Shown: piece by piece, positions 35,652-54,789 of the stretch | Numbering within the stretch: the stretch's first letter is position 1 | How the letters are laid out: every line of letters begins with the position of its first letter | NCBI GenBank assembly: GCA_963692865.2 | Contig: OY843592.1 | Span: forward strand, 2,624,001 to 2,688,000 | Direction of reading: 5' to 3' | Origin: a bacterium | Lineage (GTDB): Bacteria > UBA8248 | Length of the DNA: 64,000 bases | The notes under the pieces: model-generated | The model's input: the letters and a program-made list of their open reading frames with translations, nothing else | Databases searched by the model: none | Told to the model about the DNA's origin: nothing | Position numbers and translations under genes: made by a program

Positions 35652-35914
35652 ACTCGACAGCCAAGATCATCGATACTTTAATCGCCATGCGAGTAAAGCG
35701 CAAGTGCAATAGCTTCTTCGTACAACATGAAGCATTATTGCCCGAAGAAATGCGGCGTGTTAAATTCTGCCGAATTAGGGTGATAGAATATCTTGAAACC
35801 AAACGAGCGGTGAATCCGTTTTGCGTTTTCCTCGAAGAAGCGCCAAGGGCTTCCTTGCCCGATGATGAAGACGCCTCCTGGGTGGAGCGCAATCATCAGC
35901 GAAGAGGCAACTCC

Positions 35915-37878: not shown

Positions 37879-37916
37879 TTCCCGAACACATTCATTCATT
37901 AGGAGCGTAAATATTC

Positions 37917-39161
37917 ATGGCCACTCCTCTCCCGATGCCGAAGCTCGGCCTCACCATGGAAGAAGGCACCATCCTCAAATGGCGCAAGGACGAGGGTGAA
38001 GCGGTCGAAAAGGGCGAGATTATTCTCGACATCCAGACCGATAAAGTCGAATACGAGGTCGAATCGCCGGACGGCGGCCTGCTTCTCAAAACTTTGGCGG
38101 GAGAAGGCGACGTCGTTCCCTGCGGCACGGACATCGCCGTCATCGGCGAGGCGGGAGAGGACATCGGCGGTTTTGGAAGTGCTCCCCCCAGCGCCCCGGC
38201 GGAGGCGGAACCAGAGGCGGCGCCGGTTCCCGCGCAAGCTTCCCCGACGCCTCCCCCTGCGCCCACGGCTCCAGTCCAGACTCAGCCTTCGCCTACGGGC
38301 CGCGTTTTCGCCAGCCCGGCGGCAAGGCGCGTGGCGCGAGAGCTGGGCATCGATTACCGCACGCTCAAAGGCTCGGGCCCCGGCGGAAGAATCGTTCAGG
38401 CCGACGTGAGGGCAGCGAAGGCATCGGGCCTTCCCGCCGCGTCGGCGGCAGCCCCAAGCGGCCCCGCGGCCGTGGCGGGTTCCACGCCCCTGGCCGGTAT
38501 GCGGAAAATCATCGCCGAGCGTATGCTCGCAAGCTGGTCGCAGGTGCCGCGCATCACCATGCAGGCCGAGGTGGACCTCACCAACCTCCTCGCCGTGCGC
38601 GAGGCCAGCCGCCAGGCATGGGAGAACGACCTCGGCGTCAAGGTGTCCATCAACGATCTCATCCTCTTCTACACGGCCCGCGCCGTACGCCGCTGCCCGG
38701 CCGTGAACGTCCGCCTCGCCGAAAACGCCCTGGAGCAGATGCGGGACGTGAACATCGGAGTAGCCGTCGCCGTCGAGCAAGGCTTGATGGTGCCCGTCAT
38801 CCGGGGCGCCGACCAGAAATCCATCGACGCCATCTCGCGCGAGTCGCGAGCGCTGGCCGAGGCGGCCAGAGCGGGCGCGCTGGGACTCGATGCGCTCGAG
38901 GGCGGCACCTTCACGGTCTCGAATCTCGGGGCGTACGGAGTCGACCATTTCAGCGCCGTCATCAACCACCCCGAATCCGCCATCCTCTCGGTGGGGGCGG
39001 CGCGCGAGCGCGCCGTCGTGCGAAACGGCGAGATCGCGGCCCGGACGACGGCCTATGTCGGCATCAACGCCGACCACCGCCTGGTCGACGGCGCGCCGGC
39101 GGCCGAATTCCTCAGTACGCTCAAGGAGATGCTCGAGCACCCCAAGGTGATGCCCGCGTAA
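37917..39161 (+). CDS. Dihydrolipoamide acyltransferase E2
   Basis: Lipoyl TDKV, ASPAARR E3-binding domain, DHRLVDG. Confidence 0.94.
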   Translation: MATPLPMPKLGLTMEEGTILKWRKDEGEAVEKGEIILDIQTDKVEYEVESPDGGLLLKTLAGEGDVVPCGTDIAVIGEAGEDIGGFGSAPPSAPAEAEPEAAPVPAQASPTPPPAPTAPVQTQPSPTGRVFASPAARRVARELGIDYRTLKGSGPGGRIVQADVRAAKASGLPAASAAAPSGPAAVAGSTPLAGMRKIIAERMLASWSQVPRITMQAEVDLTNLLAVREASRQAWENDLGVKVSINDLILFYTARAVRRCPAVNVRLAENALEQMRDVNIGVAVAVEQGLMVPVIRGADQKSIDAISRESRALAEAARAGALGLDALEGGTFTVSNLGAYGVDHFSAVINHPESAILSVGAARERAVVRNGEIAARTTAYVGINADHRLVDGAPAAEFLSTLKEMLEHPKVMPA

Positions 39162-39980: not shown

Positions 39981-40013
39981 TTGACGGACCGAATTGTTAT
40001 GTTATAACATTAC
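39981..40013 (+). promoter_or_regulatory. znuA1 promoter with Zur box
   Basis: TTGACG -35; palindrome GTTATGTTATAACATTAC. Confidence 0.75.
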
Positions 40014-40059
40014 ATTTAACAGCTTCGCCATCCCATTTCACGCCGAAAGGAAAGTATTC

Positions 40060-41172
40060 ATGAAAAGGACCTTATCAATGAAATATGTGTTGCTCACTGC
40101 GGCTCTGACGATGGCGCTCCTCGCGCGCCTGACCGCCCCCGCATCGGCCGCGCCCCCGGTGGTGGTCTCCATCAAACCGCTTCATTCGCTGGTCTCAGGC
40201 GTCATGAAGGGGGTCGGCGAACCCCATCTGCTGATAAAAGGCGCCGCCTCGCCGCATACGTTTTCACTCAAACCCTCCGATGCCGGCGTCCTCGAGAGGG
40301 CGCGCGTGATTTTCTGGGTGGGCGAGGCGCTCGCCCCGAGCCTCGATCGGCCCATCGAAGTTCTGCCGAAACGGGCGAAGGTCGTCGCCATGACGGAGAT
40401 AAAGGGTCTGAAGCTGTTGAAGATCAGAGAAGGCGGTTTGTGGGAAGCGCACGACGACCACGGCGAGAAGGGAAAAGGCGGCCACCATGACGAACACGGG
40501 CACGGCAAGGCCAAAGACGCCGATCATCACGACGAGCATAAACACGCCAAGGGAAAAGACGAGCGCCACGACGAGCATAAACACGAGAAAGCCAAAGACG
40601 ACCATCACGATGAGAAGGCCGGCGCTCATCACGGGGAGCATCATCATCACAGCGATATCGACGCGCACGCCTGGCTCGACCCCGTGTACGCCAAGAAGTG
40701 GGTGCATGAGATCACGCATGAGCTCGAAGAGGTGGATCCTGCGAACAGGAAAAAATACGAGGCGAACGAAAAGAGGCTTATGGCTCGATTGGACGCCCTG
40801 CACGAGGAATTGAAAAGCACGCTCGCGCCGCTGAAAGGCGCGCCCTACGTCGTCTTTCACGATGCGTATCAATACTTTGAGAAACGCTACGGACTGAACG
40901 CCATCGGTTCGGTGACCTTCTCGCCCGAGAAAAAGCCGGGCGCGGCGCGCCTCGTGGCGATACGCAAGAAGATCAGGGACACGAAGGCGGCCTGCGTGTT
41001 CAGCGAGCCGCAGTTCCAGCCCAAGCTGGTGAAGGTCGTCATGGAGGGAACGGGCGCCGAAACCGGCGTGCTCGACCCCCTGGGCGCGGATATTCCCGCC
41101 GGTGAGGACGCGTATTTCACCCTCCTGCGCAACATGGCGAAATCGCTCAGGACATGCCTTTCGGGAGAATAA
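40060..41172 (+). CDS. znuA: Zinc ABC transporter substrate-binding protein (copy 1)
   Basis: SIKPLHSL, ASPH.FSLKPS, His-rich loop, HAWLDP, FHDAYQYFE, FSEPQF. Confidence 0.95.
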   Translation: MKRTLSMKYVLLTAALTMALLARLTAPASAAPPVVVSIKPLHSLVSGVMKGVGEPHLLIKGAASPHTFSLKPSDAGVLERARVIFWVGEALAPSLDRPIEVLPKRAKVVAMTEIKGLKLLKIREGGLWEAHDDHGEKGKGGHHDEHGHGKAKDADHHDEHKHAKGKDERHDEHKHEKAKDDHHDEKAGAHHGEHHHHSDIDAHAWLDPVYAKKWVHEITHELEEVDPANRKKYEANEKRLMARLDALHEELKSTLAPLKGAPYVVFHDAYQYFEKRYGLNAIGSVTFSPEKKPGAARLVAIRKKIRDTKAACVFSEPQFQPKLVKVVMEGTGAETGVLDPLGADIPAGEDAYFTLLRNMAKSLRTCLSGE

Positions 41173-41737: not shown

Positions 41738-42532
41738 TCACCCCCTGCCTGCGATCATTTCCCAGGAATGACTGAACAGGAACAGCACGGCCGCCGCCAC
41801 AACGATGCAGGGACCCGCGGGCGCGTTCCATTCGACCGACGCCCAAAGACCCGCCCCCACGGAGACGACCCCCGCCAGGACGGCGAGCGCCGCCATCTGC
41901 TCGGGCGTTTTGGCGAACCGCCGCGCCGCCGCCGCCGGTATGATGAGCATCGAGGTGATGAGCAATATGCCTATCAGCTTCATGGCGACGGCGATGATGA
42001 AGGCGATGAGGAGCATGAAGATGAATTTCACGGCGAAGGTCGGAATCCCCTCGGCGCTCGCCAGTTCCTCGTTCACCGTGACGGCGAGAAGGCCCCGCCA
42101 CAGCCACGCGAGCACGGCCAGCGCCGCCGCCCCGCCGAGGTATATCCACCATAAATCGAGCGGGCCGACCGCGAGAATGTCCCCGAACAGATAGCCCATC
42201 AGGTCCACCCGGAGCGTCTCCAGCACGCTGACGGCGATGATGCCCACCGAAAGCGCCGTGTGCGCCAGGATGCCGAGCAGGGTATCGGTGGAGAGTGTTT
42301 TCCGGCTTTGCAGCGCCAGAAGAACGATCGCGAGGCCGATGCATGAGATAAGGATGCCGAGCCTGAGGTCCACTCCGAAGGCGAACCCTATCGCCACGCC
42401 GAGAAGAGCCGTGTGGGACATGGAGTTTCCAAAGTAGGCCATCTTGCGCCAGACGATGAAACAGCCCACGGGGCCCGTCACCAGCGCGACGCCCACCCCG
42501 CCCATGAGCCCCCTGACCATGAAATCCTCCAT
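41738..42532 (-). CDS. znuB: Zinc ABC transporter permease
   Basis: GCFIVWRKMAYFG..SH.ALLG, YLFGDILAV, LIIPAAAAR. Confidence 0.95.
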   Translation of the reverse strand: MEDFMVRGLMGGVGVALVTGPVGCFIVWRKMAYFGNSMSHTALLGVAIGFAFGVDLRLGILISCIGLAIVLLALQSRKTLSTDTLLGILAHTALSVGIIAVSVLETLRVDLMGYLFGDILAVGPLDLWWIYLGGAAALAVLAWLWRGLLAVTVNEELASAEGIPTFAVKFIFMLLIAFIIAVAMKLIGILLITSMLIIPAAAARRFAKTPEQMAALAVLAGVVSVGAGLWASVEWNAPAGPCIVVAAAVLFLFSHSWEMIAGRG

Positions 42533-43317
42533 CAGTCGCCTCCTTGATGGTGGTGGGCTTCCTTGGGTTCGATGGGGAGTATCTCCCCTTCCGGCCCGTG
42601 AACGTGGTCGTATCTGTGCCTGTAAACGGCGAGGCTCTCGGCCGCCTGTTTGCCGAACAGGGCGAGATATTCGGGGTTTTTGCTCACGGCTTCGGGATGC
42701 CCCGTGCAGCAGATATGCCTGTTGAGGCACACCACGCGGTCCGTGAACGCCATGACGAGGTGGAGGTCGTGCGAGATCAGGATGACGCCGCAGCCCCTGT
42801 CGTCCCTGATCTTCGCGATCAGGCGGTACAGTTCGCCCTGCCCGTTGACGTCCACGTTCTGGATGGGCTCGTCGAGAACGAGGAGTTCGGGGTCGCGCAG
42901 CAGGGCGCGGGCGAGGAGAACGCGCTGGCGCTCTCCGCCGGAGAGGCTCTGGACGGGTTGATCCAGCAGGTTTCCCGCGCCCACCTCATCGAGATGCGCC
43001 TCCATCTGCTCGGAAGACGGTTTTTGGGTAAGACAGAGCAGCCTGCGCACGGTGAGCGGAAGCGAAGGGTCCACCTCGAAGGCCTGGGGCAGGTAGCCTA
43101 CGGAGAGGTCCCCGTTCCGGCGAATCTCGCCCGAGTCGGGCTTGAGCAGCCCGAGCAGCATGCGGACCAGCGTGGTCTTGCCCGCGCCGTTGGGGCCGAT
43201 GAGGGTGAGAATTTCGCCCGCCGATATATCGAGGTCGACGTTATCGAGAATCGTCGTCTCGCCGATGCGGAAATTGAGGTTCGCGACGGAAATGAGGGGA
43301 GGCCGCGCGTCATCCAT
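42532..43317 (-). CDS. znuC: Zinc ABC transporter ATP-binding protein
   Basis: GPNGAGKT, LSGGE, LDEP, SHDLHLVM, HICC.GHP. Confidence 0.95.
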   Translation of the reverse strand: MDDARPPLISVANLNFRIGETTILDNVDLDISAGEILTLIGPNGAGKTTLVRMLLGLLKPDSGEIRRNGDLSVGYLPQAFEVDPSLPLTVRRLLCLTQKPSSEQMEAHLDEVGAGNLLDQPVQSLSGGERQRVLLARALLRDPELLVLDEPIQNVDVNGQGELYRLIAKIRDDRGCGVILISHDLHLVMAFTDRVVCLNRHICCTGHPEAVSKNPEYLALFGKQAAESLAVYRHRYDHVHGPEGEILPIEPKEAHHHQGGD

Positions 43318-43798
43318 CGTCGTGGCACTCCATGCACCGGCCGCTGATTTCCATGACGGGCGTCTCCACCAGGAAGCCTGCCTGGGTGGCGCTCGCCTCG
43401 ATGGCCTCGCCGATTTCCTCGCTGTGCGTCTCCGCCACGTTTCCGCAATCACGACAAATGAAGAACAGGGCCTTGTGGGCGTCCGCCGACATCGCGCAGC
43501 CCACGAACGCGTTCATGCTTTCGATGCGGTGGATAAGGCCGTGCTTCAAGAGGAAATCCAGCGCCCGGTAGACCGTGGGCGGAGCGTTTCTGCCTCCGCC
43601 CGCGTTCATGCGCTCAAGCACATCGTACGCGCCCAGAGGCGCATGGCTCTCCCAGACGATTTCCAGAACCCGCCTCCTGTGCGGCGTGAGTCTGGCGCCG
43701 CGCTCACGGCAAAGCGCTTCGGCTTGTTCGAGGGCGCTCTCGATGCAGGCCACGTGGTCGTGATCCCTGCGGAGAAAATGTTTTTCTCTCGATGCCAT
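43310..43798 (-). CDS. zur: Zinc uptake regulator (Fur family)
   Basis: HDH..C, RLTP.RRRVL, PPTVYRALDFL, CxxC twice. Confidence 0.93.
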   Translation of the reverse strand: MASREKHFLRRDHDHVACIESALEQAEALCRERGARLTPHRRRVLEIVWESHAPLGAYDVLERMNAGGGRNAPPTVYRALDFLLKHGLIHRIESMNAFVGCAMSADAHKALFFICRDCGNVAETHSEEIGEAIEASATQAGFLVETPVMEISGRCMECHDDG

Positions 43799-43808
43799 AC
43801 AAAATTCC

Positions 43809-43846
43809 TTGACGGGCAAAATCGAAACGTTATATTATACCAACCC
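43809..43846 (+). promoter_or_regulatory. Divergent zur/znuA2 promoter with Zur box
   Basis: TTGACG; GAAACGTTATATTATACC resembles GAAATGTTATAWTATAACATTTC. Confidence 0.7.
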
Positions 43847-43889: not shown

Positions 43890-45065
43890 ATGAAATATAT
43901 GTCGATCATCCTGGTTCTGACAATGGCGCTGTTTACGGGGTTTGCAGCCCCTGCTTCGGCCGCGCCCCAAGTGGTGGTTTCCATCAAACCGCTTCATTCG
44001 CTGGTATCCGGCGTCATGAAGGGGGTCGGCGAACCCTACCTTCTGATAAGAGGCGCCGCCTCGCCGCATACGTTTTCCCTGAAACCCTCCGACGCCAGAG
44101 AACTCGAGAGGGCGCGCGTGATTTTCTGGGTGGGCGAAGTGCTTGCTCCCGGATTGGAGCGGCCCCTTGAGGTTCTGCCGAAAAAGGCCAAAGTCGTCGC
44201 CCTCGCGGAAATAAAGGGTCTGGAGCTGATTAAGCTCAGGGAAGGCGGCCTGTGGGAAGGGCACGATGATGATCATGGCGAAAAGGATGATCACCACGAA
44301 AAGGAAAAGGGCGAGGCCAAAGGCGAGCATCACGACGAGGGCAAAGAGGCGAAAGCCGGGGACGATGATCACGACAAGGAGAAACGCGGAAAAGCCGAAG
44401 ACGACCATCATGACGAGAAGGAAAAAGCCAAGGCCAAAGAAGAACATCACGATGAAGAAAAGCGCGGAAAAGCCGAAGATGACGATCACGATAAGGAGAA
44501 GGCCGAGGCCAAGGGTGGTCATGGAGATGAGGAGGATCATCACGGCGGCTTCGACGCGCACGTCTGGCTCGACCCCATGAACGCCCGCAAATGGGTGGAC
44601 GCCATCGCCCATGAACTCGAAGAGGTGGATCCTGGGAACAGGAAAAAATACGAGGCGAACGCGCGGAACATGAAGGCCCGCATCGACGGCCTGCACAAGG
44701 AACTCGCGCGCACGCTCGCCCCGGTGAAGGGTACGCCCTACATCGTCTTTCACGATGCGTATCAATATATGGAAAAACGCTACGGACTGACCCCCATCGG
44801 TTCGGTGACGCTCTCGCCCGAGAAAAAGCCGGGTTCGGCGCGCCTCGTGGCGATACGCAAGAAGATCAGGGACACGAAGTCGATCTGCGTGTTCACCGAG
44901 CCGCAGTTCCAGCCCAGACTGGTGAAGGTCATCATGGAGGGAACGGGCGCCGGAACAGGGGTGCTCGACCCCCTGGGAACGGATATTCCCACCGGGGGGA
45001 ATGCGTATTTCACCCTCATGCGCAATATGGCGAAATCGCTCGTGAGGTGTCTTTCGAGGAAATAG
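43890..45065 (+). CDS. znuA: Zinc ABC transporter substrate-binding protein (copy 2) with an extended His/acidic repeat loop
   Basis: Same motifs as copy 1; about 90-aa H/D/E/K loop of ~13-aa repeats. Confidence 0.95.
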   Translation: MKYMSIILVLTMALFTGFAAPASAAPQVVVSIKPLHSLVSGVMKGVGEPYLLIRGAASPHTFSLKPSDARELERARVIFWVGEVLAPGLERPLEVLPKKAKVVALAEIKGLELIKLREGGLWEGHDDDHGEKDDHHEKEKGEAKGEHHDEGKEAKAGDDDHDKEKRGKAEDDHHDEKEKAKAKEEHHDEEKRGKAEDDDHDKEKAEAKGGHGDEEDHHGGFDAHVWLDPMNARKWVDAIAHELEEVDPGNRKKYEANARNMKARIDGLHKELARTLAPVKGTPYIVFHDAYQYMEKRYGLTPIGSVTLSPEKKPGSARLVAIRKKIRDTKSICVFTEPQFQPRLVKVIMEGTGAGTGVLDPLGTDIPTGGNAYFTLMRNMAKSLVRCLSRK

Positions 45066-45226
45066 TTCGGGGCGGCGTTTCCCCGGGGATATGAACGAGC
45101 CTGCCCGGCTCCACGCATATCTTCGGATGCCCGCCCGCCGCGGTCGATAATTTTGGCGGGAACGTATTCCCATCCTCTTTGCTGAAAACTTTCCGCAAAA
45201 TTCTGTATTTGCGCCTGAACAATCTG

Positions 45227-45256
45227 TTGACACTCCCCCCTTTCGTCTAGTAACTT
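45227..45256 (+). promoter_or_regulatory. Possible sigma70 promoter of the permease-SPFH operon
   Basis: TTGACA-N18-TAACTT. Confidence 0.4.
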
Positions 45257-45324
45257 CAAAAAATAACGCGATACGGAATCGGTGTGGTTTCCACGAAATC
45301 TTTCATTGCGAGGGGAATGGCCCA

Positions 45325-48054
45325 TTGGCTGCCGATTTGGCAAGCAGATTCGCCGATTTTTTTTACTTTCTGTGGATGTCGTTCCTGCTGCTCTCGCCCA
45401 TGCTGCTGCTCGGTCTGTTTCTCTCCGGCCTGATCCACGTCTTCATCTCCCGTCAGGCGATTCTCCGGTGGCTTCGCGACGACGGCCTGAAATCGGTGAG
45501 CGTCAGCTCGGCCGTCGGCGTCCCCGTGCCGCTGTGCAGTTGTTCCGTCGTGCCCGTGGTCGCCGAGATGCGCAGAAAAGGAGCTTCCCGCTCGTCTTGC
45601 ATGTCCTTTCTGATAACGGCTCCCGAAACGGGCGCCGATTCGATTCTCGTGACGAACGCCTTCTTCGGATGGATAGCGGCGATAGTCCGCCCCGTCATCA
45701 GTTTCGTCACCGCGGTCGTCGCCGGCGTCTTCTGCATCGGCCTCATAAGAGCGGATGAAGGCGCGGCGAAAGAAGGCGAGCACGATCATGAACACGACCA
45801 CGGGCACGATCACGACCACGCGCATGATCACGGGCATGGCCACGACCACGATCACGGCGCGCACGAACCGCTCGTGCCGGGTTCGGAGGACTGCTACATC
45901 AGTCCTGCCCAACTCAAGCGCGCCCTCATCCGTTGGGTGAAGGGAGTCGCCGTATCGGTGCGAAACTGGAAGGCCGCGTCATGGGTGAAGCCGGACTTCT
46001 ACCAGGAGGAATTGTCCGCCGATGAGGAATCGGGCGAGACCGGCCTCGCCCCTGTGTCCGAGGCGGAGCGCCTGCCGGGTTTCAGGACGATCGTCAGGCA
46101 CATATTCAGCTACGGCTTTGTCGAAATCGCGGACGACATTCTCTTCTCGCTTCTCTTCGGCGTCTTCGTGGGCGGATTGCTCTTTCTGGTGATCCCGAGC
46201 GATCTGATGCAGAACGAATACGCCCGCTGGGCGTCCTACCCGATCATGGTCATCATCGGTATTCCCCTCTATATCTGCGCGTCCGCGAGCACGCCCATCG
46301 CCGCCGCGCTCGTCGCCAAGGGTTTCACTCCCGGGGCTGCGCTGATTTTTCTCATGACGGGCCCGGCGACCAACACGGGAACCATCGCGGTTATCATGAA
46401 CCAGTTCGGCACGCGCTTCGCGTCCATCTACGTCGGCGTCGTCATCGTCGTCACCGTCATTTTCGCCGTCCTGATCGACGCGTTTTTCTTCGCCACCGGT
46501 TTTTCGCTTCCCGTGAACCTCAACGCCTCGGAATCGCCCGCCATCCTGTTCCTGCAATACGGGAGCGCCCTGGTCTTTTTCGTCCTGGTCGTGTGGCGTT
46601 TCCGCGCCGGCGCCTTCCGAACGGGATATGAGGATCTGTTGCAGAACATCCGCTCCATGTCCGAGCCTTCCAGGTACGTGTGGGATCGCCTGACCCGGGG
46701 CCGGTCCATACGAGGCGCTTTCTCCCTGAAAACGCCCATGGGCCTCATTCTCTCGGGCCTGATTCTCCTCGTCTTCCTCGGCACCGGCTTCACGACCGTG
46801 CCTCCAGGCGCCGTCGGCTACGGCCGCCTGTTCGGCAAGATCTACTGGAGAGACTTGCAACCGGGGCTGCACTATCTCGCTCCCTGGCCCTTCGTCGAGG
46901 TGGATAAATGGCCGGTCAGAGAGGTGAAGTCCATCATGTCCGGCGACGTCCACGAGTACGTTTCCGGCGATCTGAATCTGGTCTCCCTCACTGTGAACGT
47001 GCAGTACCGGGTGCAAGACCCCTTCGTCTATCATTATCGGGTAATCGACGCGCCCAAGGTCATTGAGGACAGCGTCAGGGACCACCTGCGCGGCTTCGTA
47101 TCCGCCCGGGGTCTGGAGCAGTTGCTCAACGTCCATCGCAAAACCCTGGAGAAGCACGTCTCCCATTTGTTCGAGCATTTGTCCGCCAAGGCGGATTCGG
47201 GGCATGCGGACGTAGAAGCCTCGGCGTTCGAGAGCGTCGAACTGGTAAAGGTGAATCTGGCGGCCATCCGCCCCGTGGCCGAGACGATAAGCGCGTTCCG
47301 GGAGGTGTCGAGCGCGCAGGAGGACAAGGAGCGGATTATCGTCAACGCGCAGCGGTTCCTCGTGTCGCTGACGCCCCGCGCTTACGGCAATGCCGATTAC
47401 GAGGTGAAACAGGCCGACGGCGAGGCGTACCGTAGAGTGAAAGGCGCCGGGGCGGAAGCCGACGCGATCCGGCGAGTGTCCGGGGCCGTGCGGAGCGCTC
47501 CGGAGGTTCTTGAGAACATGCTGTGGCGCGAGAAGCTCGAAATCGCGCTCTCGCATAACTCCAAGATCATCGTTCCCGACAAGGGAAGTCTGGCCAAGGT
47601 CGCGCTGTGGAAGCGGCGCTCCACGGGAACGAGTCATGGCGCCCACAATCCCGGACGCGGGAGGAACGGCGCCGGCGAGGACGCGGGCCACGAAGGCGGT
47701 GGCGGCGATAACGACAAGAGCGGCGGCCACGGCGGGAACAACGCAGAGAAAGACAAGAGCGAAGCCCACGGCGAATCGGGCGAATCCGGGGGCGGCGCGG
47801 CGCATGGCGAGAACAACGGCGCTCATGGCGAGACGGAAAAATCCGGGAACGCGAGAGCCCACGGCGGGAACAACGCGGAGAAAGACAAGAACGGCGCCCA
47901 CGGCGAATCGGATAAATCACCAAACGATACGGCCCTTGGCGGGAGGAACGGCGCAGACGAGGGACGCGGCGCTCATGGCGCGTCGGCGAGCTCGAACGTC
48001 GCGCGAAATGATTCCATGGCCGGGGCGAACCACAGCGGGAGAGAGAAGAGATGA
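45325..48054 (+). CDS. DUF318/ArsP (SO_0444-like) His-rich permease fused to an HflK-like SPFH domain
   Basis: GVPVPLCSCSVVP, FLITAPETG, PLYICASASTPIAAAL, FLMTGPATN; (HD)n loop; then TM-GFTTVPPG...FGK...PGLHY..PWP...SGDLNLV...VQYRV.DP...AFREVSSAQEDK SPFH/coiled coil; Gly/His tail. Confidence 0.88.
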   Translation: MAADLASRFADFFYFLWMSFLLLSPMLLLGLFLSGLIHVFISRQAILRWLRDDGLKSVSVSSAVGVPVPLCSCSVVPVVAEMRRKGASRSSCMSFLITAPETGADSILVTNAFFGWIAAIVRPVISFVTAVVAGVFCIGLIRADEGAAKEGEHDHEHDHGHDHDHAHDHGHGHDHDHGAHEPLVPGSEDCYISPAQLKRALIRWVKGVAVSVRNWKAASWVKPDFYQEELSADEESGETGLAPVSEAERLPGFRTIVRHIFSYGFVEIADDILFSLLFGVFVGGLLFLVIPSDLMQNEYARWASYPIMVIIGIPLYICASASTPIAAALVAKGFTPGAALIFLMTGPATNTGTIAVIMNQFGTRFASIYVGVVIVVTVIFAVLIDAFFFATGFSLPVNLNASESPAILFLQYGSALVFFVLVVWRFRAGAFRTGYEDLLQNIRSMSEPSRYVWDRLTRGRSIRGAFSLKTPMGLILSGLILLVFLGTGFTTVPPGAVGYGRLFGKIYWRDLQPGLHYLAPWPFVEVDKWPVREVKSIMSGDVHEYVSGDLNLVSLTVNVQYRVQDPFVYHYRVIDAPKVIEDSVRDHLRGFVSARGLEQLLNVHRKTLEKHVSHLFEHLSAKADSGHADVEASAFESVELVKVNLAAIRPVAETISAFREVSSAQEDKERIIVNAQRFLVSLTPRAYGNADYEVKQADGEAYRRVKGAGAEADAIRRVSGAVRSAPEVLENMLWREKLEIALSHNSKIIVPDKGSLAKVALWKRRSTGTSHGAHNPGRGRNGAGEDAGHEGGGGDNDKSGGHGGNNAEKDKSEAHGESGESGGGAAHGENNGAHGETEKSGNARAHGGNNAEKDKNGAHGESDKSPNDTALGGRNGADEGRGAHGASASSNVARNDSMAGANHSGREKR

Positions 48055-48962
48055 CCTTCAGCGCAAAGAGAATCTTCGCGGCCATCGCCGTGGTTGTCCT
48101 GCTCGTCGTAGCCTACGACTGCTTCTACGTCGTCGACGAGACGCAACAAGGGGTACTGACCCACTTCGGCAAGATTTCGCCTCCCGTCAGGCAGCCCGGC
48201 CTCCACGTGAAATGGCCCAGGCCCGTATCCAGGGTCTACAAGGTCGACCGGCGCATTCACGCCATGACGGGCCTCACCCAGGAATTGATCACCGAGGATC
48301 AAAAGAGTGTCCTTATAGACGGATACCTGCTCTGGCGCGTGACGGACCCCATTCTCTTCGTCGAATCGATCCGGACAGGCAAGAGCGCGACGAATCGGCT
48401 CAAGGACCTCTATATGTCGAGCAGCGGCATCATCATCAGCAACAAGGCGCGCGACGCCTTCATCGGGCTGGGACTCGAGCATGAAGATCTGAGCGAGGCG
48501 TCTCAGAAGATTCTGGGCCTCATCGCGCCCGTCGCGAAAAAAAATTACGGCGTCGAGGTAGTGCGCACCGGGATCGTCGAGTACACGCTGCCTGTAGCGA
48601 ACCGGCCGAGCGTGATTCAGCGGATGATCTCCGAGCGCGCCCGCATCGCCGCCCGCTACCGCAGCGAGGGCGAGGAGATGGCGATCCGCATCGAGGCCCG
48701 CGCCATCAACGAGCACGAGAAACTCCTCGCCGATGCCCACGCCCAGGCGACGACCATTCTGGGCAAGGCGGAAGCCCAGGCGATGGCGCTGCTCGGCGAG
48801 GCGTACAAAGCGGACCCGGAGTTCTACAAGTTCATCCGCGCCCTCGACAGCTATGATCTCATAATCAACCGGAACACAACCCTCATGCTGCCGGCGGACA
48901 ACGAACTGTTCAAATATCTCGACAGCAAGGAAATACCCCGCCGGGACGGGGCTGGCCGATGA
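48051..48962 (+). CDS. HflC-like SPFH protein
   Basis: YVVDETQQGV..FGK, PGLH.K.P, RMISER.RIA..YRSEGEE, AYKADPEFY.FIRALDSY. Confidence 0.92.
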   Translation: MTFSAKRIFAAIAVVVLLVVAYDCFYVVDETQQGVLTHFGKISPPVRQPGLHVKWPRPVSRVYKVDRRIHAMTGLTQELITEDQKSVLIDGYLLWRVTDPILFVESIRTGKSATNRLKDLYMSSSGIIISNKARDAFIGLGLEHEDLSEASQKILGLIAPVAKKNYGVEVVRTGIVEYTLPVANRPSVIQRMISERARIAARYRSEGEEMAIRIEARAINEHEKLLADAHAQATTILGKAEAQAMALLGEAYKADPEFYKFIRALDSYDLIINRNTTLMLPADNELFKYLDSKEIPRRDGAGR

Positions 48963-50284
48963 ACGAAGGACAATCAACGCCTCCAAGCGCGCGAATCATA
49001 TACGCCGTATTCGACTTTTTCGGGCGTCAATACAGGAAGGTTATCGCCGGCCTCATCATCGTCTGCGTGCTCGCTTTTCTGGCGAACGGCTTCTACGTCG
49101 TCCAGAAAGAAGAACAAGCCGTGCGCACCCGCTTCGGGAAGGTGGTCGACGCCGAAGTCGGCCCGGGGCTGGGCTACGCCGTCCCGCTCATCGAGCGGGC
49201 GCACGTTCGCAAGGTCAAGGAGATCGTCGGATACCAGATCGGGAGCAGGAGCGGCGCCACGATCAACTTCACGATACTCTCCGGCGACCTGAACCTCCTC
49301 GATACGGACGTGGCCGTTCAATACAAGATCAAGAACCTGCGCTCCTACCTCTTCGCGGCCTCCGACCCCCGCAAGATGCTCACCATGCTCGTTCGCGAGG
49401 GGCTGGTCAAGATTCTGGGGGAGAACTTCATCGACCTGATCTTCACCTCGAACCGCGACGTCATTCAGAAACAATTGGCCGGCCTGGTGAACAAGCGCCT
49501 CGAATCGCTGGGCGTCGGGATCGAGCTCGTCACGCTGAACATCGTCGAGGTGCGCTCGATTCCCGAAACCCTCCAGGCCTTCCGGGACGTCAACGACGCC
49601 TTCGCGGAGCGTGAGCAGGTCGTGAGCCGGGCGAACAGCCAGAGGGAAATGCTGCTCGCCCGCAGCAAGGGCCAGGCCGACGCGCTGATCATGAACGCGA
49701 AGGCGAACGCCCGCGAACGCCTCGTTCAGGCGCGAGGCAGCGTCCGCGCCTTCAAGGCGCTGCTGGCCGAGTACAGGAAAAATCCGAACCAGGTGGCCAT
49801 CACCCGGTATTGGCAGCGTATGCGCGCCATCTTCACCGAGGCGAGTCTGGCGATGGTGAATCCGGGCAAGGACTCGACCATCGACATCAACATGCTCGAA
49901 GGCGCGCCGGGATTCACTCCTGCGGGAGCAGGCGGCCACGGCGTGGCGGATTTGGTGACGCGAATGCCGCATACGGCGGGCGATGCCGATGGACGCCTGA
50001 GCAGGGCGACCATGCCGCCCTACATCCACAGGCTCGAAACCACCCGGCGGGACGACCCGCTCAGAGAAGGCCGTTTCCACAAACGGCGCACGGAGCGCGA
50101 CCATGCGCGGGTGGCCAGTCCACGCTCGCTGATCTTCGATACGCCTTCCATATTCTCCCATCGCCACGGCGCGCCCGGCCGCAAGAGGATCGGAAACCGG
50201 GCGGACCAGAGGCCGATGACGGAGAAAATGCTGGGCGCGGGCGGGAACAACCATGGGCGCGAGACGGGGAAAAAGGATGATTAG
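48959..50284 (+). CDS. HflK-like SPFH protein
   Basis: GFYVV..EEQAV..RFGK, LSGDLNL, VQYKI, AFRDV..A, F..LLAEYRKNP. Confidence 0.9.
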   Translation: MNEGQSTPPSARIIYAVFDFFGRQYRKVIAGLIIVCVLAFLANGFYVVQKEEQAVRTRFGKVVDAEVGPGLGYAVPLIERAHVRKVKEIVGYQIGSRSGATINFTILSGDLNLLDTDVAVQYKIKNLRSYLFAASDPRKMLTMLVREGLVKILGENFIDLIFTSNRDVIQKQLAGLVNKRLESLGVGIELVTLNIVEVRSIPETLQAFRDVNDAFAEREQVVSRANSQREMLLARSKGQADALIMNAKANARERLVQARGSVRAFKALLAEYRKNPNQVAITRYWQRMRAIFTEASLAMVNPGKDSTIDINMLEGAPGFTPAGAGGHGVADLVTRMPHTAGDADGRLSRATMPPYIHRLETTRRDDPLREGRFHKRRTERDHARVASPRSLIFDTPSIFSHRHGAPGRKRIGNRADQRPMTEKMLGAGGNNHGRETGKKDD

Positions 50285-51491
50285 ACGACTGCCCGGCAGA
50301 CTTCGCGCGGCTCTCTTTCCGGCCTTGGCGCTCTTGCTGGTCCCGTCGCTTTCGGCGGCGGCGCCCGGCGTGAGCGCGGATGCGGTCGTTTTCGGCCAGA
50401 CCGTCGGCATCTCGGGGCCGGCCAGGAGCGCGGGGCTCCTCTTTCAGGAGGGCATCTTCGCGGCGCTGGAAGAACGCAACGCGCGGGGGGGCGTAGGCGG
50501 CAGGACGTTGAGGCTGATCTCGATCGACGACGGATACGAGCCCCAAAGAGCCGCGGAGAACGCGAAGAAATTCGCCGCGGAAAACAAGGTGCTCGCCTTG
50601 ATCGGCGGAACGGGAACGCCGACGACGAAACGCGCCGCGCCGGTGCTGCGAGAGGCCGGGATCCCTCTGGTGGGCGTCCTCAGCGGCGCCGACTTTCTGC
50701 GGGATGCCAGGCGGTATCCGAACCTCGTCCACCTGCGGGCGAGCTATTCCCAGGAGGTCCGCGCTCTCGTGGATCACATCGTTCGCAAACGCGGCAAGAA
50801 ACGCTTCGGCATCATCTACCAGGACGACGCTTTCGGACGTTCCATATTGAAGAGCTACCGGGAGGCGCTGGCCGCGCACAAACTCCGCGTCCGGGCGAAA
50901 GCGAGTTTTTCGCGCAATACGCATGCCGTTCACGCGGGCCTGTTCGTCCTTCAAAAGGCCGATCTCGACGTCTTGATGATCGGCGGAACAAACGAGGTAA
51001 GCGCCGAGATCATCAATCTCGTGAACGACCTGGGCCACGATTACGTCATGGCCACGTTGTCCATCTCCCTGTCCCATAAACTGAGAATGAGCATCGAAGC
51101 GCGGAGTGACAAAATCCTGCTGAGCGAAGTGCTGCCGGACGCGCACGACACGAGCAGCAAAATCGTCAGAAGTTATCAGCGCGCCATGCTTGACCGAGCG
51201 GCGAAAAAGGGGAGCGGGGAGTCCGCCCGGCCCGAATTCACCCAGTTGTCCCTGGAGGGCTACATTCTCGGCCGCTTCGTCATCGCCGTCCTCGAGCGCA
51301 CGGGCGAGAATGTAACAAGGGAGCGGTTCCTGCAACAGGCGCTGGCCTCCGGGGTTACGCTCATCGACGACTGGGCGGTCGAATTCAAGCCCGGAGCGAA
51401 CACCGGCTCGAAGTACGTCAAGGTGATCAACTTCAACAAGGATAGCCACGACTTCACGAAAGGAGACGGCGGCCTTGAAAAAGGTAGATGA
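50277..51491 (+). CDS. Periplasmic binding protein, type 1 (LivJ/Leu-Ile-Val-like)
   Basis: Signal peptide, FGQT..ISGP, GGVGGR, DDGYEP, GTPT, RASY..E, YQDDAFG. Confidence 0.88.
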   Translation: MIRRLPGRLRAALFPALALLLVPSLSAAAPGVSADAVVFGQTVGISGPARSAGLLFQEGIFAALEERNARGGVGGRTLRLISIDDGYEPQRAAENAKKFAAENKVLALIGGTGTPTTKRAAPVLREAGIPLVGVLSGADFLRDARRYPNLVHLRASYSQEVRALVDHIVRKRGKKRFGIIYQDDAFGRSILKSYREALAAHKLRVRAKASFSRNTHAVHAGLFVLQKADLDVLMIGGTNEVSAEIINLVNDLGHDYVMATLSISLSHKLRMSIEARSDKILLSEVLPDAHDTSSKIVRSYQRAMLDRAAKKGSGESARPEFTQLSLEGYILGRFVIAVLERTGENVTRERFLQQALASGVTLIDDWAVEFKPGANTGSKYVKVINFNKDSHDFTKGDGGLEKGR

Positions 51492-51963
51492 GTTTTCCAC
51501 CGAAGAGGTCGGAGAGGAGTGGCTGCGCGAACTCTACAAGGTGATCGCGCTGCGCCGCGGCACCATGTTCCGGCTCATCACCGAGTCGGCGCGCATGCTG
51601 CTCTACGGCAACGCGGGCGGCACGGCGTTGATCATCGGCTTCATGAGCAACACCTCGAAGGCGGAAAATACGTTCTACCACTGGACGCTCCTGCTGGCTT
51701 TGATCGTGTTCGGAGCCGGCGTTCTCATGGCGGCGCTCACCCTGGTGCTGGTGACCCTGGTTTCGGTGAAAGAGGCGCACGGGGCGGAAGACGGACTCAA
51801 GGAGTTCGTCGACGGCAATCTGGATCGCACGAAAGTGCTGTTCACGGTGAAAAACGAGACGTTTCGCCTCGCGGACTACACCACGGTGGCCGGCACCGTC
51901 AGCGCCGCGTGTTTCATGATCGGCGGCCTGCTCAGCCTCTTCCTGTTGGTTCTGTTCTTCTAG
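51475..51963 (+). CDS. Small membrane protein of unknown function
   Basis: About 3 hydrophobic segments (LLYGNAGGTALII...); overlaps the upstream stop; GC3-rich codons. Confidence 0.7.
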   Translation: MKKVDEFSTEEVGEEWLRELYKVIALRRGTMFRLITESARMLLYGNAGGTALIIGFMSNTSKAENTFYHWTLLLALIVFGAGVLMAALTLVLVTLVSVKEAHGAEDGLKEFVDGNLDRTKVLFTVKNETFRLADYTTVAGTVSAACFMIGGLLSLFLLVLFF

Positions 51964-52159
51964 GCCTCCCGAGGGGACAAAAGCGAACCTCCCCGCTTCG
52001 GTAAGATTCCTCCCGCATCAGCCGCGATTGGCCCCCGTTTCCCTCCCCTCGCCTCGTGTTGTATGATGATCCGCGTTGCAACGCGCGCGTTATGGAAGAG
52101 CGCCGCGAGTACGGCATATACCGCCCCCCGGCGAGACCGGGTCATTCGGGAGACAGGCA

Positions 52160-52608: not shown

Positions 52609-52942
52609 GCCGGACAGGCGAAGGAGCCTGTCCGGGGACCTTCGTGTCCGCCGCCTTTCTTTGAAGAAAATTGAGAATACTGTAGGGGCGGTTCACGAAC
52701 TGTGGAGCGACCCCGGGAGAGATCGCCCCCTATCCGTATCCTATCCGTATAAGAAGGCACTTACCTTTCCTCTCAAGGCGGTCTTGCCCAAGAGTCGTCA
52801 TTCCGGCGTATGCCGGAATCCAGAACCGACGAAGGGGGAGACACGGCGGGTTTTATTCCCTGCCCTCATGGGATAGGCATGACGGCAAAAAAAGAAAGGC
52901 GAAAAACAAATTTCCTCGATTCCGGCATACGCCGGAATGACG
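52609..52942. repeat. REP cluster (GTAG and CGTC families)
   Basis: ccggacaggcgaaggagcctgtccgg; gtaggggcggttcacgaac; CGTC doublet 52796-52822 / 52916-52942. Confidence 0.8.
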
Positions 52943-52952
52943 GTGTGAAACA

Positions 52953-53417: not shown

Positions 53418-53685
53418 TTTCGCACCTCCTCCTCATGCGCATCCTACAGCGGGTGATGGCGACTCGTGAACCGCCCGAAGGGCGACCAAGAAAATTTACA
53501 ACAAGAGCGTAGGGACAGGCCCCCGTGCCTGTCCGAGGTCGCGACTGTCCTTCCATTCGACTATTTCCTGCGCGAAGGCGACCTCTCCCCTCTTCCCCCA
53601 CGCCGATGATGACGCGAACTCCACCCGCGCTTATAATGGCGTATCGCCCGATTGCGGATTATGGGAATGAAGGAGGCCTTGCGCC

Positions 53686-54126: not shown

Positions 54127-54789
54127 ATGCCGATAAACGAAGCCACCGGTCTTTCAGGCGACATGGGCGTCACCGAGGAGATGATGGCCTGCCCCCTGCC
54201 CCGCGTGCCGCTCATCGACCCGGACGACATCCCCGAACATCTGGCCGAAGAACTCGCGCCCCTCTATGAGCGCGGCGTGAAGCGCTGGGGCAAGGTGTCG
54301 CGCTTCCTGCGCCTGCTCGGCTGGGCGCCCGGCTTCGTCGAGGGCTGGCAGATCATGGACGGAAAGCTCAGGGTCCAGCACCGCGACTCCGACCCCGAAT
54401 ACCTCCACATGGCCCAGCTCGTCATCATCAAGACGGCCATCCTGACCGAGTGCAACAACTGACTCGGGCACAACGTCGAGCTCGGTCGGGCTCAGGGCAT
54501 CGAACAGGAAAAAATCAATCTGCTGGAAGGCGACGGCTGGCGCGACAGCGCGCTCTTTAACGAGAAGGAAAAGGCCGTCATCAACTGGGCGGAGGAAGTC
54601 ACGAACTTAACAGCGAAAGAGAACGACGCGGCCTTCGAGGCCATGAAGAAGCACTTCTCCACCGAGCAGCTCGTCTCCCTCACCCTCATCTGCGGGCTGT
54701 GGAACCTGACGGGCCGCGTGGCCGAGGCTTTGCACCTCGTCGTGGAACCCCCCGGCGAGCGCATCGCGTTTCAGGAGGGCGGTGAGTAG
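54127..54789 (+). CDS. AhpD/carboxymuconolactone decarboxylase-like selenoprotein (Sec encoded by TGA 54460-54462)
   Basis: ELVI-like QLVIIKTAILTECNN-U-LGH continues in frame for 108 more codons (GIEQEKI...FNEKEKAVINWAEEVT...HFSTEQLV.LT); SECIS-like hairpin. Confidence 0.88.
54478..54493 (+). promoter_or_regulatory. Putative bacterial SECIS hairpin
   Basis: GAGCTC-GGTC-GGGCTC; loop begins 21 nt after the UGA. Confidence 0.7.

Follow-up and report, generated by a model that had tools for sequence, protein, structure and literature searches.

The locus examined here raises the question of why a metal permease should share one polypeptide with an HflK-like cage subunit, and what the genes encoded alongside it might do. 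It lies in a 64,000-nucleotide stretch of a bacterial genome (UBA8248; GCA_963692865.2, contig OY843592.1; C1:2624001-2688000), hereafter the window. We find that a permease covalently joined to a cage-type subunit is a natural, uncharacterised architecture, and that the five-gene cassette headed by this fusion probably encodes its own HflK/C-type assembly, located in the periplasm and centred on a metal permease of elevator fold, which serves the handling of zinc or a soft divalent metal.

A five-gene cassette headed by a permease-HflK fusion

The 6.9 kb cassette comprises five open reading frames, all on the + strand, in the order K1-C2-K2-PBP-TM162. K1 (45325-48054), the permease-HflK fusion, is a single open frame of 909 aa with a TTG start codon. 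It is followed by C2 (48051..48962), an HflC-like SPFH protein of 303 aa with an N-terminal membrane anchor and a remainder predicted to be periplasmic, and by K2 (48959..50284), a second HflK-like SPFH protein of 441 aa with a conserved C-terminal extension. PBP (50253..51491) is a LivJ-type periplasmic binding protein of 412 aa with a signal peptide, and TM162 (51475..51963) a membrane protein of 162 aa that has three hydrophobic segments and falls outside any known family. Successive genes overlap start over stop by 4, 4, 32, and 17 nt; the ORFs agree with the original prediction, which had described hflC-like, hflK-like, binding-protein and membrane-protein genes, each overlapping the preceding stop. 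The cassette is present in 7 of the 23 genomes of the genus, and homology to those lacking it breaks at ~45138 and returns at ~52006.

The fusion is genuine and old

It is virtually certain that neither misassembly nor a frameshift produced the fusion, given hundreds of independent full-length fusions with a conserved linker and gap-free contigs, both DNA and RNA, from other studies. The 909-aa frame predicted to join a permease to an HflK-like part carries both domains in Pfam and NCBIfam scans. Among 8000 scored candidates, 671 relatives were retrieved at E<=1e-3, and PF01145 and PF03773 occur together in 116 of the 120 listed. Taking one representative per 50%-identity cluster, 99 of the top 150 have the two-domain form, always with the permease at the N-terminus, and deep fusion clades exist at 26-46% identity. 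With few candidates scored per genome, the fusion was found in none of 201 sampled Gemmatimonadota and none of 301 sampled Verrucomicrobiota genomes. The junction, for which a check of read coverage across 46600-46900 had been suggested, is bridged with 0 gaps by DNA contigs from two other studies (X5 record 2, 45312-47818; X8 record 18, 46348-47809) and by metatranscriptome contigs (X6 record 8, 46174-47138; X9 record 24, 46443-47072). On this sequence record, the permease-HflK fusion is real and old; a literature search found no paper on such an architecture.

The neighborhood is equally constant. In related loci down to 53% identity, each followed as far as its contig reaches, adjoining genes are retained in the same order in every case (C2 in 22/22, K2 in 21/21, PBP in 20/20, and TM162 in 17/17), with gene ends that abut or overlap. 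Where the permease is a close unfused relative (52-62% identity; seven loci), C2, K2, PBP, and TM162 are all missing.

K1 combines a thiol-lined permease with a cage-type SPFH subunit

The N-terminal part of K1 (residues 1-427; 45325..46605, + strand) is best read, from family matches and AlphaFold models (pLDDT 85.6 and 84.1), as a zinc/copper-type permease with an elevator fold and a thiol lining, from the SO_0444/ArsP family. Pfam ArsP_1 covers residues 21-384 (E 3.5e-46), and the NCBIfam model of the SO_0444 family, NF033936, scores 316.2 bits (cut-off 300). The modeled domain consists of two repeats and a ninth membrane helix, each repeat containing a re-entrant pair of short helices. The tips of these pairs hold the anticipated PLCSC (residues 69-73) and PLYICA (314-319, within PLYICAS at 314-320) motifs, whose cysteines C71, C73, and C318 do not vary over 104 aligned fusion proteins. 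A His/Asp-rich loop at residues 153-180 (45781..45864, + strand), predicted to be cytoplasmic from loop charges and disordered in the model, does contain the 14 His initially counted, and residues 150-182 give the same number. Family members differ in how long this loop is and how many His it has; at least 6 His fall within residues 121-300 in 37 of 99 fusions. Structural alignment of residues 1-396 (VIA-align) points to a resemblance to ArsB, DASS, TRAP-M, AbgT, and CNT proteins, with ArsB as the top match (Z 12.2), followed by IseQM (Z 10.4) and SiaQM (Z 9.6-9.7), in an overall range of Z 12.2-8.9 in which helical bundles may match by arrangement alone. A sequence relation to the TRAP, TTT, ArsB, and DASS proteins did not emerge, Foldseek yielding no match at E<=1e-3.

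An Arg/Lys-rich cytoplasmic linker and an HflK-type anchor follow (residues 428-486; 46606..46782, + strand), modeled as a 28-residue linker helix (430-457) and a membrane anchor helix (471-486) and assigned from these helices and from loop charges. The linker is conserved across the K1 family and, averaged over 104 fusions, holds 6.1 K+R vs 1.9 D+E, while the stretch behind the anchor is not basic. The HflK-like region (residues 487-765; 46783..47619, + strand) is modeled as an SPFH domain, a 73-residue coiled-coil helix, a second helix, and C-terminal strands. Pfam Band_7 matches residues 492-676 (E 4.8e-11), the hflK model TIGR01933 scores 121.2 bits over residues 503-755, below its cut-off of 159.4, and residues 475-758 align with E. 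coli HflK residues 83-351 (E 2.4e-19). The best PDB fold matches of the K1 model (mean pLDDT 85.6) are E. coli HflK cage chains (7vhq_E, E 2.5e-13, TMt 0.64), with HflC, prohibitin, QmcA, stomatin, erlin, and flotillin ranking behind them; what had been noted as an HflK-like SPFH plus coiled-coil region is, by fold (TM-score 0.64), a full-length cage-type subunit. The N-terminal anchors of C2 and K2 are likewise preceded by basic residues. Together with the basic linker of K1 and the signal peptide of PBP, this places all large soluble parts, including the SPFH part of K1, in the predicted periplasm, as in HflK/C.

K1 ends in a low-complexity tail of 144 aa, which together with the stop codon spans 47620..48054 (+ strand) and contains 36 Gly, 20 Ala, 16 Asn, and 11 His. 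This long tail is lineage-specific and differs in length among strains; tails of relatives measure ~18 aa, and at least 2 His occur in 18 of 31 tails.

C2 and K2 are distinct from the housekeeping HflK/C pair

C2 passes the hflC model TIGR01932 (170.2 bits vs a cut-off of 134.4), whereas K2 remains below that of TIGR01933 (147.6 bits vs 159.4). In a tree with a single canonical representative each for HflK and HflC, both on long branches, C2 is sister to the canonical HflC of the genome (97% support) and K2 forms its own clade inside the HflK group; each of K1, K2, and C2 makes up a monophyletic group (99-100% support), and the three branch congruently. The canonical hflK-hflC pair is encoded elsewhere in the genome (285.9 bits for TIGR01933, 232.5 bits for TIGR01932), and the cassette thus holds a paralogous K/C set, as had been proposed. 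The C-terminal extension of K2 carries a conserved motif (residues 357-401; 50027..50161, + strand), in which H357, D365, G371, H374, E379, R380, R389, S390, L391, F393, D394, S397, F399, and H401 are invariant over 15 aligned sequences.

The cassette could nonetheless recruit housekeeping FtsH, in which case the K1/C2/K2 assembly would present the tethered permease as a regulated substrate whose level follows metal. Partly disordered cytoplasmic segments are of the kind that FtsH can grasp, and such segments are predicted, from the model and loop charges, in the linker and the His-rich loop of K1. HflK/C is, moreover, a known FtsH partner (PDB 7vhp, 7wi3, 9cz2), and the genome has two ftsH genes (C1:2571137-2572861 and C1:1397888-1399636). 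Both lie outside the window, in line with the earlier statement that it contains no ftsH. None lies in or near the cassette there, and none turned up in the related loci, which were examined with queries for other genes. Two copies occur in 20 of 23 genus genomes with or without the module, and no module-specific ftsH was found among the 23. As K1 and K2 also score under the HflK equivalog cut-off, and PBP and TM162 would be left unexplained, we consider proteolytic control of the permease quite improbable.

PBP and TM162 go with the SPFH part

PBP belongs to Pfam Peripla_BP_6 (E 7.2e-47), and its nearest solved chain is 4kv7 (E 4.7e-39). This type binds amino acids or small organic ligands, which counts against a metal-cage reading; PBP alignments contain no conserved Cys, and H224 is the sole invariant His. 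No ABC transporter genes are found beside PBP in the cassette. TM162 has no match in Pfam and NCBIfam scans, and its atlas neighbors are unnamed clusters. Of the 23 genus genomes, the 7 with the fusion have its gene and the others lack it. Since close unfused permease loci have neither protein, PBP and TM162 appear to go with the SPFH part.

This co-occurrence also bears on a simpler explanation, namely that K1 is a plain efflux pump whose SPFH appendage stabilises or localises an exporter, with no ring formed and the downstream genes merely co-located. The above-cut-off match to the SO_0444 efflux family would fit, as would the CzcA-type RND and CDF exporter genes adjoining some loci. We nevertheless rate it very improbable: the five-gene order and overlapping ends are strict over all loci, the trees of the three SPFH clades are congruent, and TM162 follows the fusion perfectly within the genus. 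In addition, the coiled coil and C-terminal strands, the ring-closing parts in HflK, are fully kept in K1, and the K2 tail motif calls for a partner.

The cassette is embedded in a zinc context

Directly upstream of K1 lies a second znuA paralogue (znuA2, 43890..45065, + strand), preceded on the - strand by genes which we take, from family similarity and an NCBIfam hint for ZnuA, to be znuB, znuC, and zur (41738..43819; ORFs and translations). The position behind a zur/znu locus is as first described. Conserved neighbors strengthen the metal link and narrow it to zinc: zinc-uptake genes adjoin the cassette in 12 of 16 distinct lineages, either as znuABC/zur-type genes (the window, L028, L030 weakly, L041, L044, and L045) or as an abutting ZIP gene (L035, L037, L040, L047, L048, and L051). 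In L041 the cassette is flanked by znuA on one side and znuC-znuB on the other, all on the same strand, and in L045 znuC-znuB follow it. Close unfused permease relatives are also found beside ZIP genes (L054, L060), which makes the zinc context a trait of the permease clade rather than one specific to the caged form.

A motif scan yielded three Zur-box-like matches where 0.12 were expected, among them one in the divergent zur/znuA2 promoter (43829..43841, + strand) and one before znuA1 (39996-40013), and none between znuA2 and K1. A short terminator-like hairpin (GGGAA-N4-TTCCC; 45158..45171, + strand) lies 3' of znuA2, just behind the point where homology to module-lacking genomes stops, and is conserved in the window, G016, L008, and L028. 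Upstream of K1, a promoter-like site (TTGACA, 17 nt, GTAACT; 45227..45261, + strand) is conserved in four informative alignment rows and does not pass a stricter consensus scan. Metatranscriptome contigs from one study cover 45386-52032; in two metatranscriptome runs none covers znuA2, whereas DNA runs cover both znuA2 and the cassette.

These data bear on a further alternative, a tripartite-like importer in which PBP, TM162, and the permease correspond to P, Q, and M of TRAP or TTT systems and take up zinc or a zinc chelate under shortage, the SPFH proteins merely keeping binding protein and permease together. It would account for the TRAP-M and DASS fold matches, for the constant presence of a single binding protein and a single small membrane protein in the cassette, and for the adjacent zinc importers and their arrangement in L041 and L045. 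However, PBP is neither DctP nor TctC, TM162 lacks a DctQ match, and the top fold match is the exporter ArsB, at Z scores that helical bundles can reach. PBP and TM162 are tied to the SPFH part, no Zur-type box precedes K1, and RNA contigs lie on the cassette instead of znuA2. Tested family members act as exporters (PMC3219624). We regard such an importer as unlikely, although less so than the two alternatives above.

A proposed periplasmic assembly around the permease

Of the interpretation originally offered, a cage with one HflK subunit tethered to a metal permease, the old and real fusion, the paralogous K/C set, the predicted periplasmic SPFH part, and the zinc link stand; for the cage itself we infer the following model by analogy. 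Given their homology to HflK/C, K1, C2, and K2 would come together in HflK/HflC fashion, giving a ring or dome on the periplasmic side that is anchored to the inner membrane. K1 would bring the permease along, so that metal permeases might be held at or under the dome, and K2 would fill permease-free HflK positions. A ring with 12 K1 would need room for 12 ten-helix permeases, for which an HflK/C-size cage may be too small. PBP and TM162 would be partners specific to the SPFH assembly rather than to the permease itself. The dome would close off a membrane patch and the periplasmic volume above the permease mouth, and passing metal could then be handled locally.

As to direction, import or acquisition is given slightly less than an even chance, export into the periplasm is a serious possibility, and any other mode seems fairly improbable. 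The prototype SO_0444 is required under Zn and Cu stress (PMC3219624), and characterised relatives are plain exporters that work without an SPFH partner (PMC3219624; PMC10092412), in contrast to the mostly importing neighbors of the cassette.

Comparison with known systems

K1 shares its permease family, and a vicinal Cys pair in a membrane segment, with ArsP, an organoarsenical efflux permease, and with the Cu/Zn efflux protein SO_0444 of Shewanella oneidensis. SO_0444 is described as unfused and as sharing its operon with a regulator of ZntR-like type (PMC3219624), whereas K1 is fused and neighbors uptake genes. The elevator-type fold with two re-entrant hairpins is common to the K1 permease and TRAP, TTT, ArsB, and DASS proteins (VIA-align). 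Like TRAP systems, the cassette pairs a large permease with a binding protein and a small membrane protein, one of each; PBP is, however, of another family than in TRAP/TTT, and TM162 has three hydrophobic segments and no DctQ match.

QmcA-YbbJ (SPFH-NfeD, PDB 8z5g) likewise combines a bacterial SPFH protein with a small membrane partner, and QmcA matches K1 weakly in sequence (E 1.7e-5) and in fold. TM162 matches neither NfeD nor another family, and QmcA is a homo-oligomer without a transporter, unlike the cassette proteins. E. coli HflK/HflC-FtsH (7vhp, 7wi3, 9cz2) has in common with the cassette the N-in anchors, the periplasmic bulk, and neighboring genes for K-type and C-type subunits. 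The cassette differs in the N-terminal ten-helix permease of a K-type subunit, two K-type paralogues below the equivalog cut-off, the absence of a linked ftsH, the added binding protein and small membrane protein, and a canonical pair kept separately in the genome.

SPFH rings with channel or transporter clients, as proposed for K1, have been described in eukaryotes: stomatin cages are reported to enclose aquaporin-1 and urea transporter-B (PMC12407830; PDB 9zd2), and sequestration is reported for erlin1/2 (10.1101/2025.06.14.659634). The stomatin-AQP1 entry 9zd2 ranks 27 among the K1 fold matches. Those clients are reportedly held non-covalently on the cytoplasmic side of eukaryotic membranes, whereas the client of K1 is in the same polypeptide and its dome would be periplasmic. 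The fusion cassette offers a natural example in which a cage protein and its client are permanently linked.

A permease and an HflK-type subunit in one polypeptide

The five plus-strand reading frames of the original prediction (45325-51963) were borne out, every start overlapping the preceding stop: K1 (45325-48054, 909 aa), a permease continued by an HflK-like part; C2 (48051-48962, 303 aa), HflC-like; K2 (48959-50284, 441 aa), a second HflK-like protein; PBP (50253-51491, 412 aa), a periplasmic binding protein; and TM162 (51475-51963, 162 aa), a membrane protein of no known family. Profile searches confirmed the proposed fusion of a permease with an HflK-like SPFH domain in K1, with Pfam ArsP_1 at residues 21-384 (E 3.5e-46), Band_7 at residues 492-676 (E 4.8e-11) and NCBIfam NF033936 'SO_0444 family Cu/Zn efflux transporter' at residues 18-423, at 316.2 bits barely above the cut-off of 300. 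The composition count likewise returned the 14-His loop of the permease. Its membrane segments keep the Cys motifs of the family, with C71 and C73 (CxC, repeat 1) and C318 (a single Cys, repeat 2) unchanged throughout 104 fusions.

An assembly or frameshift artefact is rejected, since hundreds of full-length relatives exist and independent DNA and RNA contigs span the junction: contigs from two other DNA studies and two metatranscriptome runs cross it with no gaps. Of 8000 candidates scored in a word-indexed search, 671 proved to be relatives at E<=1e-3, and both Pfam domains are present in 116 of the 120 relatives listed. Linker, anchor, SPFH domain and coiled coil are kept in an alignment of 31 relatives, with a mean column identity of 59%. 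The fusion family is large. Using phmmer against 1.84 billion cluster representatives, 7821 matches were obtained at E<=1e-3, of which 1104 reached E<=1e-30; among the best 150 50%-identity cluster representatives, 99 carry both domains, the permease always first, at identities down to ~26%, and 95 of these 99 contain a CxC motif within their first 140 residues. Numerous proteins filed in databases as 'SO_0444 family Cu/Zn efflux transporter' thus have two domains, and their function, even the direction of transport, may differ from that of the SO_0444 prototype.

Among sampled genomes, a match at E<=1e-40 was found in none of 201 Gemmatimonadota, and 1 of 301 Verrucomicrobiota had a match, which was unfused; as only 3-5 candidates were scored per genome, the rarity of the fusion in these phyla applies at most within the sample. 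A one-protein search of genome contigs gave a single full-length relative, and tblastn of K1 against PLSDB plasmids returned 42 records, all confined to the HflK part and none covering 80% of the query. Two relatives have unusual gene structures. At L048, a metagenome locus, the fusion gene (124-2528) lies in two frames, the permease start in one and the remainder in the other, maybe through a frameshift or sequencing error, and a listed relative of 796 aa (P0014) has a precomputed Zip domain (PF02535) together with ArsP_1 and Band_7, and may be a triple fusion or result from merged gene calls.

Predicted architecture and topology of K1

An AlphaFold model of K1 residues 1-780, built on a 104-row alignment, has a mean pLDDT of 85.6. 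After residue 487, an SPFH domain is followed by a 73-residue helix, another helix and terminal strands, as in a complete HflK-type subunit. In the PDB, the model is matched best by HflK chains of E. coli in HflK/C cages (E 2.5e-13, TM-score 0.64 on the target), followed by HflC, prohibitin, QmcA, stomatin, erlin, flotillin and vault, and the K1 sequence aligns to E. coli HflK residues 83-351. Model, fold matches and loop charges together place the HflK architecture in K1, with an N-in membrane anchor, a periplasmic SPFH domain, a long coiled coil and C-terminal strands.

The permease is modeled as two repeats followed by a ninth helix, each repeat consisting of a long helix, a short-helix pair with the Cys motif at its turn, a second short-helix pair and another long helix. 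Foldseek found no solved relative of the permease model at E<=1e-3. VIA-align against 48,161 chains gave 13 top rows with Z 12.2-8.9, separated by a gap from the next at 5.7, and all 13 are elevator-type proteins of the ion-transporter class (ArsB, Pho90, INDY and other DASS members, TRAP-M, YdaH, NaS1 and CNT). Since such Z values are too low to be relied on for helical bundles, the elevator fold is likely rather than proven; the short-helix pairs of the models and the loop charges fit inverted repeats with re-entrant hairpins. Mean loop charges over the 104 fusions are consistent with an N-out topology in which each side of the membrane is entered by one hairpin, which would place the His-rich loop and the basic linker in the cytoplasm and the SPFH part in the periplasm. 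C2, K2 and PBP are predicted to be periplasmic too, judging from their anchors and signal peptide.

The 144-aa K1 tail (47620-48051), rich in Gly, Ala, Asn and His, is specific to the genus-level lineage of the window and varies in length between strains, with contig joints containing inserted letters near 47794-47818. Tails with at least two His residues occur in 18 of 31 relatives.

The fusion belongs to a conserved five-gene cassette

From 80 metagenome loci and one genome locus, 36 (L008, L028-L061, L068) were compared, over all their reading frames, with the window proteins; several are near-duplicates, leaving ~15 distinct lineages besides the window. Down to 53% identity to K1, the genes 3' of the fusion are constant in order and strand as far as the contigs reach, with C2 present in 22/22, K2 in 21/21, PBP in 20/20 and TM162 in 17/17 cases, and gene ends abut or overlap as they do in the window. 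None of the four was found at seven loci with unfused permeases of 52-62% identity (L054, L056-L060, L068).

Within the genus, the fusion is found in 7 of 23 genomes, the window's own included, and TM162 in exactly the same seven. In five genus genomes that lack the module, homology to the window stops at ~45138 and restarts at ~52006-52033, and the two flanks lie far apart from each other. Because homology breaks off at both flanks, the cassette is a discrete 6.9-kb unit. On its 3' side, stretches at 52794-52944, 53508-53552 and 54416-54497 have dozens of matches in five same-genus genomes (55-108 per genome) and look like dispersed REP- or MITE-like repeats.

At its C-terminus, K2 is extended by a segment whose invariant motif contains three His and three acidic residues. 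PBP, assigned to Peripla_BP_6/ANF_receptor in Pfam, has the invariant residues expected of LivJ-type proteins and a single invariant His but lacks Cys, and its nearest solved chains are LivJ-like. Complex prediction of PBP (43-412) with the K2 tail (340-425) scored 0.00, which counts neither for nor against binding. TM162 is highly conserved, matches no Pfam or NCBIfam family and has only unnamed clusters as atlas neighbors.

The cassette K/C set is apart from the housekeeping HflKC

The genome encodes seven Band_7 proteins: three in the cassette, two singletons and a canonical hflK-hflC pair near 490-492 kb of C1, the contig that contains the window. Under the HflK equivalog model (TIGR01933, cut-off 159.4), canonical HflK reaches 285.9 bits compared with 121.2 bits for K1 (residues 503-755) and 147.6 bits for K2, both under the cut-off. 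The HflC equivalog model (TIGR01932, cut-off 134.4) gives 232.5 bits for canonical HflC and 170.2 bits for C2, which passes. In a quick maximum-likelihood tree of 52 rows, which contains only one canonical pair, on long branches, K1, K2 and C2 form three separate clades with 99-100% support. The C2 clade is sister to canonical HflC (97%), and K1, K2 and canonical HflK share one clade (100%) whose internal branching is unresolved. Congruent branching of the three module clades fits their co-inheritance. Within the reach of a tree with a single canonical pair, the K/C set is therefore paralogous to and apart from the genome's own, as originally proposed.

The proposal had further suggested that the set may serve something other than protease control, noting that no ftsH lies in the window. 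The absence of ftsH from the window was confirmed, as both ftsH genes of the genome lie elsewhere. Of 23 genus genomes, 20 have two ftsH genes irrespective of the module, so that copy number is unrelated to it; by this count, no module-specific FtsH was found in the 23 genomes.

Zinc genes neighbor the cassette in most lineages

In 12 of 16 distinct lineages, genes for zinc uptake lie beside the cassette. These are znuABC/zur-type genes in the window, L028, L030 (weak), L041, L044 and L045, and a ZIP gene in L035, L037, L040, L047, L048 and L051. At L041, the cassette is placed between znuA and znuC-znuB, all on one strand. CzcA-type RND genes are found nearby in L035, L040, L047 and L048, and a CDF gene in L047. 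A ZIP gene also sits directly beside the unfused close permeases of L054 (6857-9491) and L060 (6842-9256), which suggests that permease and ZIP were paired before the SPFH fusion arose or independently of it.

In the window, two znuA paralogs, znuB, znuC and zur lie upstream of the cassette. Both znuA genes (39994-41172 and 43890-45065) encode a long insert of ~80-100 residues rich in His, Asp, Glu and Lys, and each follows a Zur-box-like site; for the first, an ATG near 40060 is the likelier start, because the listed TTG overlaps that site. Further upstream (35687-39161) are genes that, from their translations, we take to encode E1-alpha, E1-beta and E2 of a 2-oxoacid dehydrogenase, presumably of the pyruvate or acetoin type.

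The metal link of the original prediction is upheld for zinc by these neighbors and by the SO_0444 precedent, and zinc as the metal of the cassette is well supported; the direction it had left between capture and export is not comparably supported. The prototype SO_0444 is needed when cells are stressed by ZnSO4 or CuCl2 and is encoded alongside a ZntR-like regulator; efflux, as judged by a mutant sensitive to Zn and Cu, is known for SO_0444 alone (PMC3219624). A Nitratiruptor member is induced by Cd and Cu (PMC10092412). By analogy, family precedent speaks for export, whereas the neighboring genes and the binding protein of the cassette point to acquisition.

Promoter-like site, Zur-type boxes and transcription

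A promoter-like site (TTGACA, 17 nt, GTAACT) is located at 45227-45261 on the plus strand, inside the cassette unit, and is kept in all four informative rows of the upstream alignment (window, the locus G016, L008 and L028), the rows of L017, L018, L020 and L021 being left out because they came from the wrong strand. The spacer between the second znuA (znuA2) and K1 differs between close strains, as an X5 DNA-run contig carries 312 other letters in place of the 247 nt at 45064-45312.

Searching for the Zur-type box GTTATANTATAAC with <=2 mismatches gave three matches in the window, against 0.12 expected, all at the two znuA promoters and none before K1. The same holds for 23 related loci, where the box is confined to znuA promoters and in no case precedes the fusion gene. 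Regulation of the cassette by Zur is thus unsupported, although it could still operate, as other taxa may use other boxes. RNA contigs cover the cassette and leave gaps over znuA2 and over 49948-50231; these are Logan contigs of one study, which attest that transcripts are present but give no information on level, start or operon structure, and the gaps are only a weak hint. Together with the missing box before K1, coverage of the cassette and not of znuA2 hints that the cassette is transcribed apart from znuA2.

A proposed dedicated HflK/C-type assembly and its relation to known systems

The analysis establishes the anatomy of the proteins, their conservation, inheritance of the cassette as one unit, its zinc setting and the distinction from the canonical hflKC. 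The best-supported reading is that K1, C2 and K2 would form a dedicated HflK/C-type periplasmic assembly that has an elevator-type soft-metal permease built into one of its subunits and works in zinc homeostasis, with PBP and TM162 as specific partners. Judging from the complete subunit architecture only, the three proteins may close into a ring or dome, of a class with some 16-26 subunits. K2 may fill HflK positions without extra bulky permeases, which we infer from geometry only. An elaboration of this reading, which we consider improbable, makes the cassette a protein-walled periplasmic chamber: the walls of an HflK/C-type dome would partly be the transporter's own polypeptide, a captive PBP would sit above the elevator-type permeases in a diffusion-limited compartment, and the conserved K2 tail, with its His and acidic residues, and the His-bearing K1 tails would line or plug the space, giving a binding-protein-dependent secondary transporter that acquires zinc or supplies it to periplasmic zinc proteins. 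If true, this would be a new kind of such transporter.

Full-text literature searches turned up no publication describing a permease-SPFH fusion or the cassette, and a term search of a 2009 survey of prokaryotic SPFH proteins gave no mention of permeases or transporters (PMC2636767). Among binding-protein-dependent secondary transporters, TRAP and TTT systems use binding proteins of the DctP or TctC family, whereas the cassette PBP belongs to Peripla_BP_6. Their small subunit is of the DctQ or TctB family; four TM162 homologs give no Pfam match even at E<=10, and a distant kinship is possible. The compact five-gene system is expressible, imageable and assayable, with metal transport or tolerance as a simple read-out. 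The nearest precedents from these searches are the stomatin cages around AQP1 and UT-B and sequestration by erlins. In all solved SPFH cases that we know of (HflK/C-FtsH, stomatin with AQP1 and UT-B, erlins and prohibitins), clients are held non-covalently, and their identity and number therefore need purification. One standing question is what clients gain from SPFH cages, and here the client is encoded within the putative cage subunit itself, together with a defined set of partners.
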